From NCBI GenBank assembly GCA_020720325.1, contig DYOW01000003.1, positions 3,522 through 57,463 of the forward strand: a stretch of 53,942 nucleotides of DNA. The letters run 5' to 3'. The notes beneath the pieces were generated by a model. It worked only from the letters and a program-made list of their open reading frames with translations. It ran no database searches and was not told where the DNA came from. The position numbers and the translations under genes are program-made. Numbering within the stretch: the first letter of the stretch is position 1; each line of letters opens with the position of its first letter. The stretch is from Desulfobulbus propionicus. GTDB taxonomy: Bacteria; Desulfobacterota; Dissulfuribacteria; Dissulfuribacterales; DYOW01. Below, piece by piece: positions 39,887 to 53,942 of the stretch.

Positions 39887-40864
39887 CTATATTTTTCCAT
39901 ACAAATGACACCTTACCATACTGCCTTCCTGTCTTATTTCAGGCGGAATGACCCTTTTACATATATCCATAACCCTGTCGCACCTGTAATGAAACACACA
40001 TCCTGTTATTTTTTCAGATATTCCCGGAACATTTCCCTTGATTGGAACAAGCCTTTTTTTGCCCAGATTAATTGGATTTGATGGTATGGAATTAATTAAT
40101 CCCTGTGTATAAGGATGCAGGGGATTTGTAAATATATTTTTAACCTCTGCCTCTTCAATAATTTCTCCAAGGTACATAATAAGCGCCCTGTTTCCTATCT
40201 CTGATACAAGACCCAGATTATGGGTAATGATTATTGTTGACATATTGCCCTTTTGAAGTTCTTTCAAAAGCTCAAGAATCTGCCATTGTATTGTAACATC
40301 AAGCGCGGTTGTAGGCTCATCCGCAATAAGAAGGCTGGGATTACAGCTTAAGGCCATTCCTATCATTGCCCTTTGCCTTAAACCTCCTGAAAGTTCATGG
40401 GGATAGGCATAAAAAAGTCTTTCAGGTTCAGGAATACCCACCCTATCCATTATATCCAATGTCCTTTTCTTGGTTTCTTTCCAGTCGGTTTTAAGATGTT
40501 CGGCAATTGTTTCGGATATTTGTTCGCCTATTGTAAAAACCGGATTAAGGGATGTCATTGGCTCCTGAAATATCATGGAAATCTGTTTGCCCCTGACCCT
40601 TGTCATGTCTTTTTCTGAAAAACGGTCAATTCTCAGTCCCTTGAAATTAATAGCGCCGGACGTTTTTCTAATGGAATGGGAGGGGAAAAGTTTTAAGACA
40701 GATAAGGATGTGAGGGTTTTGCCGCAGCCGGATTCACCCACTATGCAAAGACATTCATTTTCATAAACGGAAAAACTCACATCCTTTACAACAGGATATG
40801 AGTCTTCCCCGATATTTATCTCAACCCGCAATCCTTTTACGGACAGCAGGGGATATTCATCCAT
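39887..40864 (-). CDS. ABC transporter ATP-binding protein, DppD/OppD type, no cognate permease or binding protein in the window
   Basis: 325-aa ORF with Walker A GESGCGKT, signature LSGGLRQR, Walker B LLIADEPTTALD and the oligopeptide-type C-terminal Cys-containing tail (GCVFHYRC...C...C). Confidence 0.85.
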   Translation of the reverse strand: MDEYPLLSVKGLRVEINIGEDSYPVVKDVSFSVYENECLCIVGESGCGKTLTSLSVLKLFPSHSIRKTSGAINFKGLRIDRFSEKDMTRVRGKQISMIFQEPMTSLNPVFTIGEQISETIAEHLKTDWKETKKRTLDIMDRVGIPEPERLFYAYPHELSGGLRQRAMIGMALSCNPSLLIADEPTTALDVTIQWQILELLKELQKGNMSTIIITHNLGLVSEIGNRALIMYLGEIIEEAEVKNIFTNPLHPYTQGLINSIPSNPINLGKKRLVPIKGNVPGISEKITGCVFHYRCDRVMDICKRVIPPEIRQEGSMVRCHLYGKI

Positions 40865-40884: not shown

Positions 40885-41571
40885 TTATACGTCTTTTACC
40901 AAAAGTGTCGCAGGATCAAGCAACATGGTAATAATCTGATCTATTGACTGACCCTTTAAAAGTTTTACCTGTATATCGTTTTTCTGATAATTAAGCTGGA
41001 TAATAAGCTCAAACATATCTGAAATATTTGAAAGGGACTGAGGCATGTTATTTACATACCCACCGTTTTCAGCCCTTGCGGAAAACCAGCACTGAAAATT
41101 ATTTTCCCTTGCAAACATCTTTAACTCGCTTAATGTCTCGCGAAATCTTTCTTCTATTGTAATGCCGTCAAAAAGAATCACCTGGGGAAAAAATATACCC
41201 TGTTCTATAAGGTCATTAACCCTTTCCTCAAAATGAGCTGCTGTAAAATTTCCCTGGCTAAATGTGAGAATAAATCTGTGGGGCAGTATTTCATCCCAAA
41301 CCTGGAGCGAATTAGGTATATTTGCAACATTACAAACATTTTTGAATACTTCATCATACCAGAGACATACCTTTTTTATGGGCTGATCAATTGTTACATG
41401 AAGCACATTTTTACCCTCAAAAAGTCTTTCAAGGGCAACCTGAATCAGAAACGCTGTTTTTCCGACACCGGCAGCAGCAAGTACCATCCCAAATTCACTA
41501 TCTTTAAGCAAATATTTATTGTCTTCTCCAAGTTTTCTCAGAGGATTTTTTTCAAGAAATGCTAATTTCAT
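40885..41571 (-). CDS. RecA/KaiC-superfamily P-loop ATPase-like protein of unknown function
   Basis: 228-aa ORF with Walker A AAAGVGKT and a Walker-B-like QVILFDG. No other recognisable domain. Confidence 0.5.
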   Translation of the reverse strand: MKLAFLEKNPLRKLGEDNKYLLKDSEFGMVLAAAGVGKTAFLIQVALERLFEGKNVLHVTIDQPIKKVCLWYDEVFKNVCNVANIPNSLQVWDEILPHRFILTFSQGNFTAAHFEERVNDLIEQGIFFPQVILFDGITIEERFRETLSELKMFARENNFQCWFSARAENGGYVNNMPQSLSNISDMFELIIQLNYQKNDIQVKLLKGQSIDQIITMLLDPATLLVKDV

Positions 41572-41583
41572 ATAATATGCTCC

Positions 41584-43671
41584 TTAATGTCCCTTTTTTT
41601 TGCGTTCTTCTTCGGCTTTTTTGATGATTTCATCGGCAACATTTTTTGGCACCTGTCTGTACTGGGAAAATTCCATTGTAAATTGTGCCTTTCCCTGTGT
41701 TCCTGACCTTAAGACTGTTGAGTAACCAAACATATCTGAAAGAGGAACTTCAGCCTCAATAACAGACATGTCTCCCTCGTCCTGAGAACCCAGAATAAGT
41801 CCCCTTCTCTGATTAAGAGTGCCCATAACAGTTCCCTGAAATTCTGTGGGAGTTTCCACCGCAACCTTCATAATAGGCTCTAAGATTACAGGTTTTGCCG
41901 AATTATAACCTTCTTTGAAAGCGCCCCTTGCAGCAGCCTGGAATGCCATATCTGATGAATCAACCGCATGGGATTGTCCGTCATTAATGGCTACTTTTAC
42001 ACCATTTACAGGAAAGCCGCAAAGCGGTCCTTTATCCATGCTTAACTTAAAACCCTTTTCGCAGGACGAAATATATTCTGTAGGAATTGAACCGCCAACA
42101 ACCTGATTATCAAAGATAAAATCAGCTTCTGTTGTAGGCTCCATATATCCTGCAACCCTACCATACTGTCCCGCGCCACCAGACTGTTTTTTATGGGTAT
42201 AGTTAAAATTACCTCTCTGGGTAATGGTTTCCCTATAGGCAACCTGAGGCTGACCAACGGTAAGCTCTACATTATATTCTCTTTTCATCCTCTCGGTATA
42301 AACCTCAAGATGAAGCTCTCCCATGCCTGATATTATTGTCTCGCTTGTTTCATGGTTTACAAATGTCCTGAATGTTGGGTCTTCCTTTGTGAAACGGTTC
42401 AATGCCTTAGACATATTAACCTGGGCGGCGCTGTCCTTTGGAACAATCGCAAGGGAAATAACCGGTTCAGGAATATGCATTGAGGTCATGGCATACCTGA
42501 CATCCTGTGAGGTAAATGTATCGCCGGAGGCGCAGTCCACACCGAATAAAGCTCCAATATAACCTGAAGGAATGCTGTCAACATCTTCCATCTGATCTGA
42601 ATGCATCCTTACTACTCTTCCAATCTTAACCTTTTTGCCTGTTCTTGAATTAACGATGGTATCGCCTTTGTTTAATGTGCCCTGGTATGTTCTTATATAT
42701 GTAAGCTGACCAAATCTTCCTTCATCAAGCTTAAAAGCAAGGGCAACAAGTGGTTTATCAGGATCATTAAGCATAACCACAGGGGCCTCGTTATTATCCA
42801 GATCAAGCCCAATATTTTCTACTTCAGAAGGATTTGGAAGAAATTCCATTACACCATCAAGAAGCAACTGAACAGCCTTGTTTTTATATGCGGAACCCAT
42901 AAAAACAGGGGTCATTTCCCTGTTTAATGTGCCTTTTCTAATTGCAGCCTTAAGGGTTTCTTCTTTAATGTTACCTTCCAATGCCTCTTCCATAAGCTCA
43001 TCAGAAAACATAGAGGCAGCGTCAATAAGTATCTCCCTTCTCCTGTCAACCTCATCTTTAAGATTATCCGGAATTGGAACTTCAGTTATAATTTCTCCGT
43101 TTGCGCCTTCAAAAACAAAACCTTTCATTATCACCAAATCCACAACGCCTTCAAGGTCATTCTCCAATCCAATTGGAACCTGCATTGCAATGGCATTGTG
43201 ATTAAGTTTTTCCCTTAACTGGTCAATAACCCTGAATGGATTTGCGCCACTTCTGTCACATTTATTAATAAAGGCAATTCTTGGAACCTTGTAACGGTTC
43301 ATTTGCCTGTCAACGGTTATTGACTGAGACTGAACACCGCCAACAGAACAAAGCACAAGTATTGCTCCGTCAAGAACCCTTAATGCCCTTTCAACCTCTA
43401 TGGTAAAATCAACGTGGCCGGGGGTGTCAATAATATTTATCTCATGGTCTTTCCACTCACAGTAGGTTGCGGCGGATGTGATGGTTATACCGCGCTCCCT
43501 TTCAAGTTCCATAAAGTCCATTGTCGCGCCAACACCATCTTTGCCGCGAACATCATGGATTGCATGAATCCTTTTTGTGTAAAAAAGTATGCGTTCAGTC
43601 AGGGTGGTTTTCCCTGAATCAATGTGAGCGCTAATTCCTATGTTTCTTACAAGATTTGGGTCTCGATTCAT
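41584..43671 (-). CDS. fusA: Elongation factor G (EF-G paralog, EF-G2-like)
   Basis: 695-aa ORF. G motifs [21 protein letters not shown], plus full EF-G domains II-V. It is not next to rpsL/rpsG/tuf, so probably a second copy. Confidence 0.9.
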
Positions 43672-48281: not shown

Positions 48282-49262
48282 TCATAAAAAAACTCTATCT
48301 TTGGGAAGAATACACGACTCAGCCGTGCAAAGTGTTATTTCAACGGTGATATGAGACAAATTTTCAATGTCTTTCAATAATGCCTTGTAGTGTTCCGCTG
48401 GTTTGGGATAATGCGTTACAAGCGATATTATCACAGCGTAATCATTTGGTCCAACTTTCCATAAATGCAGGTCTGCAATGCGGTTGTCTGAATCTGACTC
48501 AATTATTTTTTTTATAAGACTTTCTTTAGTATTTTCTGTATTTTCATCCAAAAGTATGGGACTGGTTTCCATTAATAAATTTAGTGACCAGCGGGATATA
48601 ACCAGAGCGCCAACCAAACCAGCCACAGGGTCAAACCAATTCCAACCGTATATTTTTCCTGCAAAAAGCGCTGCTATTGCAAGAAAAGAGGTTAAAGCAT
48701 CAGCTACTACATGAAAATAGGCAGCCTTAAGATTATGGTCATTATGCGAATGAGCGTGATTTTCGTCTTCATCATGATGATTATGTGTATTTTGATGGTC
48801 ATGTTCATGATGACCCTTAAGGAGAAAAGCGCTCAAAATATTGATAAAAAGACCAAGCGCAGCAACAATGATGGCTTCATTAAATTTAATTTCTTCAGGA
48901 TTGAATATGCGCCCTATTGATTCCACGGACATTATCAAGGCAACCACAAATAATCCAACTGCGCTTGAAAATCCCCCAAGAACGCTTACCTTGCCTGTTC
49001 CAAAGGTAAATAAAGGATTATTTTCATGCTTTTTGGCATAATTATATGCAAATATCGTAATCATAAAGGCAGCTACATGTGTCGCCATGTGCCAGCCGTC
49101 AGCCAGAAGAGCCATAGAGCCAAAAGAGATGCCTGCAATAATCTCAACAATCATTGTGACAGCGGTTAAGCATAAAACCTGTTTGACGCGTGATTCACCT
49201 TTTTTATGAATCACTGCAAAATCATGGTTATGCCGCAATGTTTCAAGTGTTTGAACGTGCAT
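48282..49262 (-). CDS. Cation diffusion facilitator (CzcD/ZitB-like) with a His-rich cytoplasmic loop
   Basis: 326-aa ORF. TM2 has LLADGWHMATH, TM5 has FHVVADALTS, and the loop is HHEHDHQNTHNHHDEDENHAHSHNDH. Confidence 0.85.
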   Translation of the reverse strand: MHVQTLETLRHNHDFAVIHKKGESRVKQVLCLTAVTMIVEIIAGISFGSMALLADGWHMATHVAAFMITIFAYNYAKKHENNPLFTFGTGKVSVLGGFSSAVGLFVVALIMSVESIGRIFNPEEIKFNEAIIVAALGLFINILSAFLLKGHHEHDHQNTHNHHDEDENHAHSHNDHNLKAAYFHVVADALTSFLAIAALFAGKIYGWNWFDPVAGLVGALVISRWSLNLLMETSPILLDENTENTKESLIKKIIESDSDNRIADLHLWKVGPNDYAVIISLVTHYPKPAEHYKALLKDIENLSHITVEITLCTAESCILPKDRVFL

Positions 49263-49286: not shown

Positions 49287-49568
49287 TTAGTTCCCGCAAG
49301 CCCTGATGAGCGTCCATATTCCTATGGCTATAAATCCAAATCCGGCAAGATAATGCAGATGTTTTTCACAAACATATTGCGAAATAATGCCACCTGCAAT
49401 AACTCCAATTGCGGAAGTAAAAATTAAAGCCAGGAATGAAGCTAAAAATATCATAAATTTACTGATATTTTTGTCTGCGGCAAAAAGCATTGTGGCAAGC
49501 TGAGTCTTGTCTCCAAGCTCAGCAATAAAAACAGTTGCAAAAACAGCAAAAAAAAATTTGTTATCCAT
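49287..49568 (-). CDS. UPF0016 (GDT1/TMEM165/MneA-like) family membrane protein, single-domain form
   Basis: 93-aa ORF with three hydrophobic segments and the family signature ELGDKTQLAT in the first one. Confidence 0.75.
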   Translation of the reverse strand: MDNKFFFAVFATVFIAELGDKTQLATMLFAADKNISKFMIFLASFLALIFTSAIGVIAGGIISQYVCEKHLHYLAGFGFIAIGIWTLIRACGN

Positions 49569-49629: not shown

Positions 49630-49767
49630 TTAGGGCTCATTTGAACCGCATGAGCCGCAGCTCCCGCCGCAACCGCCGCAGCCCTTTATAAAGGTGCGGA
49701 AAAGAAAATAAATTGCCCCTCCAAGAATTAAACTCATTAATATGATATCAAAAATACCAATGTCCAT
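49630..49767 (-). CDS. 45-aa Cys-rich single-TM peptide (resembles the FeoB-associated Cys-rich membrane protein family)
   Basis: Not in the ORF track because it is under 60 aa. Hand translation gives MDIGIFDIILMSLILGGAIYFLFRTFIKGCGGCGGSCGSCGSNEP*. A strong SD, AAGGAGGAAAA, lies 7 nt upstream, and the ORF starts 26 nt after the ATPase stop. Confidence 0.7.
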   Translation of the reverse strand: MDIGIFDIILMSLILGGAIYFLFRTFIKGCGGCGGSCGSCGSNEP

Positions 49768-49793: not shown

Positions 49794-51905
49794 TTATTTT
49801 TTTAATGGCAGAAACGAATTTAAAAGTGTTGATAATGTAAGGATATTATGCAAAAAAGCAGCGGATAGAGGTCCTATAAATCCGGTTGAGGCAGAAAGCA
49901 ATATTAAGGAGTTTAACCCGGTTGAGATATTAAAGTTTTTGTTTATTATATCCATGGTGTCAACGGCTATTTCTTTGGCGGTGACAACAGGATATATTTC
50001 ATTTTTTATCAAGACAATATCCGCCACATCTTTAGCCATATCAGATGCGTTATAAACAGCGATGCTCACATCAGCGATGGAAAGCGCGGGAGCGTCATTT
50101 ATTCCGTCCCCGCAAAAAGCGATGATATTACATTCTTCTCTCTTTAATTCTTCTATTATTCTGGATTTATCTTCAGGAAGCAGTTTATAATAAACCTCAT
50201 CAAGCCCTATCTCTTCTGAAACAGCCATAGCCTTGTTTTTCTCATCGCCTGTAAGCATAATGACCTTGACAGCGCCCGATTTTTTCAATGCGATTATGGT
50301 ATCTTTGGCATCATGTCTTAATTTTTCCTTTAATGCTATAATGCCTATTGGCTCATAGTCCATAGTCATATAAAGAAGGGTTTTTCCTTCCAAAATAAAG
50401 GATTTTATTTTATTGTCATATTCATCAAAGGAAATATCCTCGTCTTCCTCAATAAAGTGATTGCTTCCCACCAGAACCTGTTTTTCATACACATTAGCCT
50501 TTAGCCCGTGTGCAATAATATATTCAACATCTGAATGTTTTATGTGCTTTAATTCCTTTTGCCTTGCATGTCTTACAATAGCCTGACCCACAGGATGATT
50601 ATAGTGTTCCTCAAGCGAGGCTGCCATAGCAAGAATATCATTTTCATTATAATCCTGATGAAAAGAGATTAAGTCCGTTATTTCCATGTGTTCTGATGTT
50701 AATGTGCCTGTCTTGTCGAAAACAAAAACATTGGCTCTGGAAAGCTTTTCAAATGCATTTCCGCCCTTTATGATTACTCCTTCAGTTGTCGCTTTATACA
50801 TTGAAGACTTAAAGGCAACAGATGGAGAAAGCTTTATGGCGCAGGCATAATCAACAAGTAAAACAGAAGCTGTTCTTTTTATGTCCCTTGTTAAAATATA
50901 GACTATAGAGGCAATAATCAATGTTATAAAAACACTCCTGTCTCCAAGTTTATCCGAATATCTCTGAATATTGCTTTTTGATGCAAGAGATTTTAATATA
51001 TATGAGGATATTCTTGCTGTTATGGTTTCTATTCCTATTTTTTCAGCCCTTATTTTAATAGCTCCTTCCCTTACTGTTGAGCCGGACAATGCATAGTCAT
51101 TTATTTCTTTTTTTATTGGTATTCCCTCTCCTGTAAGGGAAGACTCGTCAACAAGCGCTCCTCCTGAAATAACTGTTCCGTCTATTGGAATTATATTGCC
51201 TGCGTTGACAGACACTATATCATTAATATCTATATCATTTATATTTATCTCTATAAGATTATTATCTCTTTCAACCCAGATTTTTTCTATTGATGGATTT
51301 AATAATTTTGTTATTGCTTTATCCGCCTGATTAGTGGTGAAATATTCAAGATATTCTCCTGTTTCTATGAGAAGATATGTCAGGTTTGCCGCAAGATAAT
51401 TTTTTCTTAAAAGAGATATAAGCACAGCCAATGCGGATAAAACATCCGCTTTAATGCCTTCAAGAAATAATTTTTTTATTCCTCTTAGCAAAAGCGGCGA
51501 CACTGATATAAAGGTCAGGATATTTTTCAATGTCTGGGGCATTATAGGCAAAAACAATAATAAAACTATGCTTCTTGATATGTGAAAAAGGTCTTTTTGT
51601 TCAATTTCTCCTGGATATACAAAGCGCTCGGTATTTTCATCACTAAAATAATTTATAATTCCGTCAATTATTTTTTCCCTTGTTTCAATATTATTATCAT
51701 AATTAACAATAACGGAATTAGCCAGAAGATTTATTCTGGTTGCGGTCACGCCCTGTATTTTTTCAAAAAAAGCAATAATTTTTATGCTGCTTATTGAATT
51801 TAAATTTACATTAAAAGCCTTAAAGCGTATTCTTTTAGGGATTTCATGCGCTATATAAATATTGCTTTTTTTCAGTTTCAGGTTTTGATTTATTATGTTA
51901 TTCAT
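49794..51905 (-). CDS. P1B-type (heavy-metal) P-type ATPase with a non-canonical transmembrane metal site (YAC in place of CPC) and a Cys-less HMA-like N-terminus; FezB/P1B-6-like candidate
   Basis: 703-aa ORF. Motifs: TGE (SLTGEG), DKTGTLT, the HP dipeptide (YNHPVGQAIV) diagnostic of P1B pumps, MLTGD, GDGINDAPAL. The TM helix before DKTGT reads LLVDYACAIKLSPS, with no CPx/SPC/TPC. Confidence 0.8.
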   Translation of the reverse strand: MNNIINQNLKLKKSNIYIAHEIPKRIRFKAFNVNLNSISSIKIIAFFEKIQGVTATRINLLANSVIVNYDNNIETREKIIDGIINYFSDENTERFVYPGEIEQKDLFHISRSIVLLLFLPIMPQTLKNILTFISVSPLLLRGIKKLFLEGIKADVLSALAVLISLLRKNYLAANLTYLLIETGEYLEYFTTNQADKAITKLLNPSIEKIWVERDNNLIEININDIDINDIVSVNAGNIIPIDGTVISGGALVDESSLTGEGIPIKKEINDYALSGSTVREGAIKIRAEKIGIETITARISSYILKSLASKSNIQRYSDKLGDRSVFITLIIASIVYILTRDIKRTASVLLVDYACAIKLSPSVAFKSSMYKATTEGVIIKGGNAFEKLSRANVFVFDKTGTLTSEHMEITDLISFHQDYNENDILAMAASLEEHYNHPVGQAIVRHARQKELKHIKHSDVEYIIAHGLKANVYEKQVLVGSNHFIEEDEDISFDEYDNKIKSFILEGKTLLYMTMDYEPIGIIALKEKLRHDAKDTIIALKKSGAVKVIMLTGDEKNKAMAVSEEIGLDEVYYKLLPEDKSRIIEELKREECNIIAFCGDGINDAPALSIADVSIAVYNASDMAKDVADIVLIKNEIYPVVTAKEIAVDTMDIINKNFNISTGLNSLILLSASTGFIGPLSAAFLHNILTLSTLLNSFLPLKK

Positions 51906-52091: not shown

Positions 52092-52277
52092 TTAGTTTTT
52101 ATGCGCAAAAGGATTATAAAGATTATAATGCCACAGTGAAAATCCTATCATGGATACCCCTGCGATAGTATGGTATTCCCAGTTTGCCCTGCCCCTGCCC
52201 ATTCCTGTCCATACGAGATAGAGCATAGAAAGCGTCATGCCTGTTTTGACAATACTGTTTATTGTTTTTTTTTCCAT
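52092..52277 (-). CDS. 61-aa two-helix membrane protein with conserved-looking His residues (DUF4405-like?)
   Basis: It is the only ORF in a 620-nt gap. It has two hydrophobic helices (MTLSMLYLVWTGMG; HTIAGVSMIGFSLWH), no SD, and is co-directional with the cluster. Confidence 0.5.
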   Translation of the reverse strand: MEKKTINSIVKTGMTLSMLYLVWTGMGRGRANWEYHTIAGVSMIGFSLWHYNLYNPFAHKN

Positions 52278-52527: not shown

Positions 52528-52872
52528 TTATACTGATTCCTTCTCTTCCTTTTTAAGATTTATTTCCTGTTTTACATCCTCAAATTTTTCTTTAATCTCT
52601 TCAATACCTGAAACCACCCCTGTCCAGGACTGAGCCACTGCCTTTAAGATAAATTTCTGGACATTTTCATTGCTGAGAACAAGAGTCAATCCCGCTCCGA
52701 TTAATAATCCCTGCCAGAGATATCCTGAGCCAAAATCAAATCCCAAAATTCTGGGATAATTCTGCTGTGGGTATTGATAAACAGGATAATTTGACTGATA
52801 TAAATTTGATGCAGGATAATAGCCCTGATTTGCGTAATCAGGAAAGACATTAGGCTGGCGGTGACTGCTCAT
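52528..52872 (-). CDS. Small membrane protein: Q/N/P/Y-rich N-terminus, YtxH-like GxxxG helix, charged coiled C-terminus
   Basis: 114-aa ORF. The N-terminal region is QPNVFPDYANQGYYPASNLYQSNYPVYQYPQQNYP, followed by FDFGSGYLWQGLLIGAGLTLVLSNENVQK. The start overlaps the upstream stop (TAATG). It is paralogous in the helix region to 53304-53942. Confidence 0.7.
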   Translation of the reverse strand: MSSHRQPNVFPDYANQGYYPASNLYQSNYPVYQYPQQNYPRILGFDFGSGYLWQGLLIGAGLTLVLSNENVQKFILKAVAQSWTGVVSGIEEIKEKFEDVKQEINLKKEEKESV

Positions 52873-53273
52873 TAGGATTTTTCTCCTTGTTCTTCAGTAT
52901 TTTGAGGCGCTGCCTTTGGTTTTCCAATATATGACATAAGATAACCAACGCCAGTTGCTGTCGCCGCCATAAATAAAAACGGAACTACTCCCCTTGCGCC
53001 TGTCATCTGGGCAACTGATGTTCCCGCAAATGTGGCGACCCCTGCCATTCCACCTTTGACAAGGCTGTCAATGCCTGCCTGTGTCCATGTCATTTGATTT
53101 GACTGGACTTTATGGATATTATTTCCCATGCTGAGTGTGGCGCCAACAATAACGCCGAATAAACCTGTGCTTAATGCCAGTCTGCTGTTAAAATAATTTG
53201 CGGGATAGTAATTATAAGATTGTTGCGGATACTGATAGTTTTGGTTTGGAAAATTTGAATGAGACATAGACAT
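52872..53273 (-). CDS. Small two-helix membrane protein with Q/N/Y-rich N-terminus and a MamC-like helix-loop-helix core
   Basis: 133-aa ORF with AAGGAGAAAC 6 nt upstream. The N-terminal region is NFPNQNYQYPQQSYNYYPANYFN. TM1 is GLFGVIVGATLSMG, the loop is NNIHKVQSNQMTWTQAGIDSLVKGG, and TM2 is the Gly/Ala-rich MAGVATFAGTS...VVPFLFMAATATGVGYLMSYIG. Confidence 0.7.
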   Translation of the reverse strand: MSMSHSNFPNQNYQYPQQSYNYYPANYFNSRLALSTGLFGVIVGATLSMGNNIHKVQSNQMTWTQAGIDSLVKGGMAGVATFAGTSVAQMTGARGVVPFLFMAATATGVGYLMSYIGKPKAAPQNTEEQGEKS

Positions 53274-53303: not shown

Positions 53304-53942
53304 TTATTTAATTGGTTGTCCTGATGAGAATATATTTGCAAGTCCTTCTTTAACTGATTTATTTGTCAGCAAAAAAGCAATCAAAGAGCCTGCAATCAAT
53401 CCTTTCCAGAATTGTTCATGGTTAAAATCCACCGAAAAAACTGAAAAAATCTCATCTGGCTGTGCCTGACCCGCCATTATTCTGTTAACTGTTTCCATTG
53501 CCATGCCAAACCTGTTTTCCATGTGTTTTGGATGGTGATGGGGTGAATGACTGTGGCTTTGCATTGATGAATGGCTTTGCTGCTGAGGATTGTAGTAATT
53601 AGCCTGATTAGGATCAGCATATTGAGCATGTGGATTGACAAATGGATTTTGAGTCTGATATGGATTTGAAAAAGGGGGATAACCATAAGGATTCATAAAA
53701 TTTGGCGGGACAAATCCTGGAGGTCCATAAGGCTGGGCTTGAAAATTATGGGGAAGAGTCTGCTGAAAAGGAGCGCCATACATCATCTGAGCCTGCATAA
53801 GTTCCTGTCCAAACATCATCTCAGAGCTAAAAGGATTCTGCTGTGGATGCAGCTGGGGCTGGAAATGAGGATTTGTGGGTTGCGGTTGCGGCTGAAAATT
53901 AGGCTGGGGATGTGGCTGGGGATGTGGCTGGGGATGTGGCTG
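53304..53942 (-). CDS. Membrane protein with a long P/Q/H/N/Y-rich low-complexity region and a C-terminal YtxH-like GxxxG helix (5' end outside the window)
   Basis: The frame stays open to the window edge, upstream of the tracked Met at 53819. Hand translation of 53942-53820 gives QPHPQPHPQPHPQPNFQPQPQPTNPHFQPQLHPQQNPFSSE. There is a His cluster HSSMQSHSHSPHHHPKH, and the C-terminus is FWKGLIAGSLIAFLLTNKSVKEGL. Confidence 0.7.
   Translation of the reverse strand, partial: QPHPQPHPQPHPQPNFQPQPQPTNPHFQPQLHPQQNPFSSEMMFGQELMQAQMMYGAPFQQTLPHNFQAQPYGPPGFVPPNFMNPYGYPPFSNPYQTQNPFVNPHAQYADPNQANYYNPQQQSHSSMQSHSHSPHHHPKHMENRFGMAMETVNRIMAGQAQPDEIFSVFSVDFNHEQFWKGLIAGSLIAFLLTNKSVKEGLANIFSSGQPIK
53902..53942. 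repeat. 12-nt tandem repeat GGCTGGGGATGT (at least 3.4 copies, truncated by the window end), coding for (QPHP)n on the minus strand
   Basis: Identical units at 53902-53913, 53914-53925 and 53926-53937, plus a partial unit at 53938-53942. Confidence 0.9.

Follow-up and report, generated by a model that had tools for sequence, protein, structure and literature searches.

What is a gene resembling that of the magnetosome protein MamC doing among the genes of a bacterium with no visible magnetosome operon? The question is raised by a stretch of 53,942 nucleotides (nt) that we refer to as the window (contig DYOW01000003.1 of assembly GCA_020720325.1, positions 3,522 to 57,463 of the forward strand). 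Near its end, at 52872..53273 on the minus strand, lies an open reading frame (ORF) of 133 amino acids (aa). An initial annotation, made from the letters alone and without database searches, had read the core of this protein as MamC-like, had placed it next to metal pumps and had suggested an iron-mineral compartment. Our answer, to which we give a probability of roughly 0.8, is that the protein is a MamC-superfamily membrane protein of the FezF type ('Group 4'). Its gene would belong to a fez cluster, the gene set of the ferrosome (an organelle that stores iron), and its host is an uncultured member of the Desulfobacterota of the Seep-SRB2/UBA3076 order.

The ORF at 52872..53273 is a genuine gene. 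It begins with an ATG, 7 nt behind an AAGGAG in the window sequence, and its TAA overlaps the ATG of the downstream 114-aa gene by 1 nt. Compared with a 95%-identical metagenomic relative (locus L130), 29 codons of the gene differ synonymously and 6 non-synonymously, and residues 31-119 hold just one of the six. Hence, the gene is under purifying selection. The core that the initial annotation quoted, GLFGVIVGATLSMGNNIHKVQSNQMTWTQAGIDSLVKGGMAGVATFAGTSVAQ, is present as residues 37-89 of the protein.

The protein is homologous to magnetosome MamC, and the homology goes beyond composition. Its sole family match is the NCBIfam model MamC (NF038051; E = 2.2e-7, 31.1 bits), with residues 33-94 on model positions 9-70 of 97. 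The same model is matched by all 18 other family members tested (8 from the first alignment and 10 of 10 further ones), with E-values of 1e-3 to 7e-12 and scores of 18-47 bits, mostly over model positions 8-88. A Pfam family with the name 'MamC' (PF26373) is precomputed, as PF26373.1, on the homologue P0001, which is 95% identical and differs by one residue in 31-119, and on P0002 (68% identical). It is also precomputed on all other full-length family members found. Judged through these homologues and the profile comparison, the window protein would belong to PF26373 as well.

The profile comparison used an alignment of 56 family members (A2) and an alignment of eight MamCs (A3), three of which are named (Magnetofaba, Magnetovibrio and Magnetococcales). 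The program hhalign matches A2 to A3 with 98.5% probability (E = 2.4e-15) over 87 gapless columns. A non-significant result at this point had been named in advance as evidence against the resemblance; the result is clearly significant. Detection also works against a large background. Searching 1.84 billion representative proteins with A2 returns 217 clusters at E ≤ 1e-3 and finds the MamC P0212 at E = 5.7e-7. P0212 scores 95.6 bits on NF038051 and belongs to a textbook mam operon with the order MamF/MmsF, MFS transporter, MamI, MamE, MamK, CDF, MamO, MamA, CDF, P0212 (MamE has a Trypsin-magnetochrome-PDZ, MamO a Trypsin-TauE and MamA a TPR architecture; the two CDF proteins are MamM and MamB). 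Used as a query in turn, P0212 leads to the NCBI/UniProt-named MamCs of Magnetofaba australis, Magnetovibrio and Magnetococcales. On the pairwise level, BLASTP against the Magnetofaba australis MamC yields 12/35 identities over residues 36-70 (E = 1e-5), close to the ten or so identities over about 35 loop positions that had been counted by hand. The MamC pattern that had been used for this count is materially right: it agrees with the A3 consensus, GVLGAVVGGSAAAAKN...EA.VDTGKEAAGAGVATA.SAVAAG.

The likeness extends through the helices and the loop of the protein (all features on the minus strand). Residues 1-30 (53184..53273) form a charge-free N-terminal extension rich in Q, N, P and Y, as judged from the translation, alignments A1 and A2 and the composition. 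This extension lies outside the MamC core, and its length differs between family members. Residues 31-51 (53121..53183) form hydrophobic helix 1, with a mean Kyte-Doolittle hydropathy of 1.13. Its glycine motif G37xxG40xxxG44 is (near-)invariant across the family and common to MamC (GVLGAVVGG). A conserved polar loop of 21 residues, NIHKVQSNQMTWTQAGIDSLV, follows at residues 52-72 (53058..53120), for which the family consensus is NLHkVQd..MT..QA..DSLa. Residues 73-116 (52926..53057) make up helix 2, a turn and helix 3 in the alignments and in hhalign. Helix 2 (residues 73-92, KGGMAGVATFAG...) is rich in Gly, Ala and Thr and carries an AGVAT motif common to MamC; a short ARG turn (93-95) leads to the hydrophobic helix 3 (96-116) with the motif ATATGVGY, in which Y111 stands opposite the Tyr of MamC's KYAWD. 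A charged tail (117-133) ends the protein. An AlphaFold2 model built from the 56-sequence alignment places helices at 63-90 and 97-114 with low confidence (predicted local distance difference test, pLDDT, 52.6; predicted template modelling score 0.30), and 'three helices' is all that we read from the model. Searching the PDB sequences with a profile gave chance matches only (E of 0.7 or worse).

With the MamC (Mms13/Mam12) of magnetotactic Pseudomonadota the window protein thus shares a first helix with G-x2-G-x3-G, a polar loop of about 21 residues with an equivalent of Asp70, the AGVAT of the next helix and the Tyr of the last. Both are also encoded next to iron transporters that serve an organelle with a bounding membrane and an iron mineral inside. 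In contrast to MamC, the window protein lacks the KEAAG and KYAWDR signatures and has a Gln in place of Glu66. Its mineral would also be a different one, iron phosphate instead of magnetite.

Which organelle is meant can be read from the neighbouring genes: they are fez genes and not a mam/mms cluster. The gene belongs to a co-directional string on the minus strand. Upstream, at 53304..53942, lies a Q/P/H-rich protein whose C-terminal GxxxG anchor, FWKGLIAGSL, is of the fez Group 2-3 type. It has 212 aa in the window, where the contig end cuts its 5' end, and 307 aa in the 95% relative. Downstream, at 52528..52872, follows a 114-aa protein with a Q/N/P/Y-rich N-terminus and the GxxxG anchor LWQGLLIGAGL (Group 2-1 type, FezG-like). 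Neither of these two neighbours has an NCBIfam match at E up to 1. The string continues with a 61-aa two-helix membrane protein (52092..52277) that is DUF4405-like and of the FezC-membrane-domain type, and whose position is kept in related clusters. Next comes a 703-aa FezB-type P1B ATPase with an HMA_2 domain (49794..51905). This ATPase is 44-47% identical to the FezB of related clusters. Its HMA_2 N-terminus is R-rich (HEIPKRIRFKA), its metal-site helix contains DYACAIK, and HNILT is present as well. The signature motifs of FezB (P1B-6) are DYSCA[LI]K and HN(G/S)(T/S)T (10.1101/2020.01.10.902569 supplement); against the first of them, the window's DYACAIK has Ser changed to Ala.

Three further genes close the string: a FeoB-associated Cys-rich peptide of 45 aa (49630..49767), a GDT1/UPF0016 transporter of 93 aa (49287..49568) and a CDF transporter of 326 aa with a His-rich loop (48282..49262). 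In the window and in L130 they stand where the remaining related fez clusters carry a gene with a FeoA domain. Since GDT1/UPF0016 proteins often transport Mn or Ca, the cluster of the window may handle more than iron.

The same arrangement recurs in the related loci. In L130, the gene order is that of the window, and upstream it continues with a second HMA_2 ATPase, of the FezH type. Named genome loci number 28 (Desulfobacterota metagenome-assembled genomes, MAGs, plus two genomes labelled Pseudomonadota). All 28 have the order FezH, R-rich 110-aa protein, long Q/P-rich GxxxG protein, MamC-family gene, short GxxxG protein and DUF4405-like protein, and FezB and the FeoA-domain gene come next wherever the contig extends. 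The gene context is the same in the metagenome loci L128, L129, L130, L135 and L137. Hence the MamC-family gene lies between two GxxxG genes and beside FezB/FezH P1B ATPases in 33 of 33 related loci. Among 61 genomes of the order, the gene occurs in 8 of the 17 with HMA_2 fez-type genes and in none of the 44 without; these genomes are mutually related, and the counts describe rather than test. The window protein alone and the ATPase alone, used as queries against the genome contigs, gave no match, and an alignment was needed as the query.

Two natural fusions tie the family to its surroundings. In P0127, the MamC-family domain runs directly into a GxxxG protein of the FezG type. In P0112 (locus L129, 8001-8681), a soluble N-terminal domain, which reads from its sequence as a putative DUF2202 ferritin-like domain (a type mentioned in 10.1101/2020.01.10.902569), is fused to a MamC-family domain. 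The P0112 locus is a fez cluster; the fusion gene stands at the cluster end, and a stand-alone copy is present as well.

How does this compare with the ferrosome literature? Clusters of fez genes combine FezB with R-rich proteins, with GxxxG proteins and with other groups that are conserved (Grant et al., 10.1101/2020.01.10.902569). The GxxxG motifs of Groups 2-1 and 2-3, for example DFLKGLLIGAAATY and DFWKGALVGAAVVF (10.1101/2020.01.10.902569 Supplementary Tables), are matched by LWQGLLIGAGL and FWKGLIAGSL in the window. One of the further groups, 'Group 4', holds hypothetical proteins of 90-170 aa encoded between GxxxG genes, such as Dde_0492 between Dde_0491 and Dde_0493 (10.1101/2020.01.10.902569). 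Sputcn32_3195 of Shewanella putrefaciens CN-32 also lies between two GxxxG genes and is placed in Group 4-2, together with RPA2335 of Rhodopseudomonas palustris (10.1101/2020.01.10.902569). By its position, Sputcn32_3195 is FezF. The gene order of the window matches both Dde_0490-0493 and Sputcn32_3193-3198. In Desulfosarcina variabilis Montpellier, profile A2 finds exactly two ORFs, 8.9 kb apart, of 159 aa and, counted from an internal Met, 143 aa. These are the sizes of Dsarc_02690 and Dsarc_02790, both of Group 4-1.

The window protein resembles FezF and Group 4 in its place (after the R-rich gene and the long GxxxG gene, before the short GxxxG gene, near FezB), in its size class of about 90-170 aa and in being a small multi-helix membrane protein. 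It differs by its Q/N/P/Y-rich N-terminal extension and its position on a divergent sub-branch, and the last genes of its cluster encode the FeoB-associated peptide, GDT1 and CDF proteins, not a FeoA-domain protein. The FezA/FezE/FezG-type GxxxG proteins (Group 2) that flank the gene, and one of which is fused to it in P0127, are likewise small membrane proteins of ferrosome clusters with small-residue motifs for helix packing. However, they form a separate family, with a single anchor [FW]xKG(L/A)(L/I/V)xGA, and are unmatched by the MamC model. In the literature we searched, no paper connects MamC to ferrosome genes, the terms 'MamC-like' and 'MamC homolog' are absent, and FezF occurs only in the Grant et al. 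preprint; that search did not cover the version published in Nature.

What could a MamC relative do in a ferrosome? The magnetite-interacting loop of MamC has 21 residues (PMC6206293), and Glu66 and Asp70 in it have been implicated in iron/magnetite binding (PMC6584501). The loop of the window protein (52-72) overlaps most of this loop, and hhalign sets its T-Q65-A-G-I-D69-S opposite E-E-A-A-I-D-S of MamC. D69 (codon 53067-53069) takes the position of Asp70 in the MamC of AMB-1 and is at least 90% conserved in the family. Q65 takes the position of Glu66, where other family members have Glu or Gln. Because D69 is kept, and because the loop residues N52, H54, V56, Q57, D69, S70 and K73 are as conserved as the glycine motifs of the helices, we favour a loop that faces the lumen.

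In the mechanism that we propose by analogy with MamC, the Gly/Ala-rich hydrophobic helices would insert into the organelle membrane, as they do in MamC. The conserved polar loop of 21 residues (with N52, H54, Q57, D69, S70 and K73) would face the lumen of the ferrosome. There it could bind Fe2+ or meet the granule of iron phosphate loaded by FezB/FezH, and such a contact might affect the nucleation, size or attachment of the mineral. The glycine motifs, in turn, would pack against the flanking GxxxG proteins. The fusions in P0127 and P0112 fit such a picture of membrane and mineral. We hold this mineral-facing mechanism tentatively, as an idea somewhat short of an even chance.

Several points weigh against our reading, both of the cluster and of the mechanism. 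FezH and the cluster of the window lie on different contigs. The FezH orthologue of this genome (contig C128, 17526-19697; locus L131, 1501-3678) is 91% identical to that of L130. Behind it lie two small genes on the minus strand, of 78 and 89 aa, then a helix-turn-helix/transposase-like ORF of 104 aa and the end of the contig. Probably the assembly separated FezH from the cluster; the cause of the break between FezH and the Q/P-rich gene may be an insertion, which may even have interrupted the operon itself. The link to Group 4-2, that is, to the FezF of Shewanella and to RPA2335, goes through the grouping of the preprint and through gene order. The published deletions took whole fez operons or fezBC and never a FezF-type gene alone (10.1101/2020.01.10.902569). 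The window protein has three hydrophobic segments, whereas two are described for MamC and FezF, and the pLDDT of the AlphaFold2 model is too low to decide between two and three spans. Its loop holds a single acidic residue: S58 replaces the Asp that is usual in the family and Q65 replaces the Glu of MamC, which makes the loop less acidic than that of MamC. Finally, the mineral of the ferrosome is amorphous iron phosphate and not magnetite, so a role as a template for crystal faces is not simply transferable.

Alternatively, a MamC homologue of the ferrosome could do its work without any contact to the mineral, as a subunit that shapes or scaffolds the membrane, packed by a Gly zipper against its two GxxxG neighbours, or as an accessory of FezB/FezH, with the loop making contacts between proteins. 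We consider this quite possible, if less than probable. The most conserved residues of the family are small-residue motifs (G37, G40, G44, G74, G78 and T107-G108-V109-G110), the gene is always flanked by GxxxG genes and translationally coupled to one of them, and P0127 joins the MamC-family domain to just such a partner. Roles in membrane curvature have been proposed for GxxxG proteins in the preprint (10.1101/2020.01.10.902569), and the loop of the window copy, with its one acidic residue, agrees with a scaffold too. Yet the loop is conserved to the same degree as the helices and keeps the Asp that binds Fe2+ in MamC, and the fusion in P0112, ferritin-like as far as its sequence can be read, points to iron chemistry. 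Besides, a scaffold and a mineral-facing protein are not mutually exclusive.

Far less survives of the idea that the protein is a true magnetosome MamC and its host an unrecognised magnetotactic bacterium. The similarity to MamC is significant, NCBI calls the family member P0048 'magnetosome protein MamC', and a transporter of the CDF family, to which MamB and MamM belong, is part of the same gene string. However, the 31.1 bits of the window protein are below the curated equivalog cut-off of NF038051, which is 100 bits. An unrooted tree of 171 core domains and 114 columns, with 85 of its 168 inner branches unresolved, joins the eight MamCs in one clade (Shimodaira-Hasegawa-like approximate likelihood ratio test, SH-aLRT, 97) that leaves out the window protein. 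The latter falls into a separate clade of 64 rows (SH-aLRT 99); it and two metagenomic homologues make up a divergent sub-branch of three sequences. The genome of the window, a MAG of 2.44 Mb and 97.6% completeness, has no match to magnetochrome (PF18509), MamF/MmsF (PF09685) or MamI. For the window, it had already been noticed that no other mam genes are visible. EF-G neighbours and the named relatives of the locus place this genome, that of a relative of sulfate reducers, in the Seep-SRB2/UBA3076 order. All 33 contexts of non-MamC family members are fez clusters, that of P0048 (L103) included. MamC is not known from magnetotactic bacteria of the Desulfobacterota. On score, clade, marker genes and fez context, we reject a genuine magnetosome MamC as very improbable: the window protein is not an orthologue of it. 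The iron-mineral compartment suggested by the initial annotation is supported, but as a ferrosome.

The case of P0048 (locus L103, JAFCZI010000022.1) deserves a remark of its own. It carries the NCBI name of a magnetosome protein, yet its NF038051 score is just 46.6 bits and its locus is a fez cluster; its public annotation is misleading.

That the resemblance to MamC could be merely compositional was addressed by shuffling the MamC alignment 60 times, in two ways, and rescoring it with hhalign. The real alignment scores 89.7, as against 12.7±2.6 (maximum 18.9) with all columns shuffled, 13.8±2.4 (maximum 20.5) with columns shuffled within the helix and loop segments, and 20.7 when reversed. 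Thus the likeness is not compositional. It is true that these proteins are short, of low complexity and rich in G, A, V and T, that pairwise identity is just ~26-34% and that, of 14 control genomes, 8 match the MamC hidden Markov model weakly in six-frame translation (E up to 1). Even so, we reject as extremely unlikely that any Gly/Ala-rich membrane protein with two or three helices would match as well, since shuffles that preserve composition and layout contradict it, the gapless match over 87 columns takes in the polar loop and detection is reciprocal in the library of 1.84 billion proteins.

We return to the FezF-type reading and to what it would mean. Part of it is already known: the family is the 'MamC' of current Pfam, and it is the conserved, undescribed fez group of the ferrosome preprint. 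The gene in the window is a regular, conserved part of a known cluster type, and its product adds one more, somewhat divergent protein to a family with an existing Pfam label. What matters more is the relation to MamC. The most abundant membrane protein of the magnetosome has a large family of relatives that is core to the ferrosome clusters of non-magnetotactic anaerobes. This kinship of MamC and FezF-type proteins offers a tangible starting point for working out the relation between the two iron organelles. Using the work on the MamC loop as a template, it also suggests a testable role for the FezF-type protein. A practical consequence, with P0048 in its fez cluster as the example, is that a 'MamC' annotation in metagenomic data is not evidence of magnetotaxis.

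A further step is possible, although we would not call it probable. The MamC of magnetotactic Pseudomonadota could have branched off late from the FezF-type family, which is far larger and occurs more widely and whose loops would contact the ferrosome mineral directly. MamC is one small clade among the 217 representative clusters, and its closest relatives with readable surroundings (P0099, P0166 and P0183) are in a fez context. The tree, however, is unrooted and poorly resolved. If the idea holds, bacteria have reused one module that connects membrane to mineral in two organelles for iron whose genetic bases are commonly regarded as separate.

A subgroup near the MamC clade has long C-terminal tails that are rich in Lys, Ala and Pro and resemble histone H1. 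Such tails occur in P0152, P0153, P0156, P0164, P0169, P0174, P0183, P0192, P0200, P0201 and P0206, of which P0183 belongs to a fez cluster.

The metal pumps that the initial annotation saw near the gene are there in part. The FezB-type P1B ATPase and the CDF transporter stand; the 695-aa ORF at 41584..43671 on the minus strand, a candidate for the second pump (FezH), is ruled out because it is EF-G. This EF-G paralogue forms a tight unit on the minus strand with a small P-loop protein (40885-41571) and an orphan OppD-type ABC ATPase (39887-40864). The unit contains no metal pumps and is unrelated to the MamC-family gene.

The genome of the window has a second locus of the HMA_2 type elsewhere (contig C137, 9975-13701), where a 162-aa HMA_2 protein precedes a P-type ATPase reading frame of about 1054 aa. 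Nine related genomes without a MamC-family gene have similar HMA_2 ATPases of 1020-1050 aa. Loci of this type may represent a different HMA_2 metal system.

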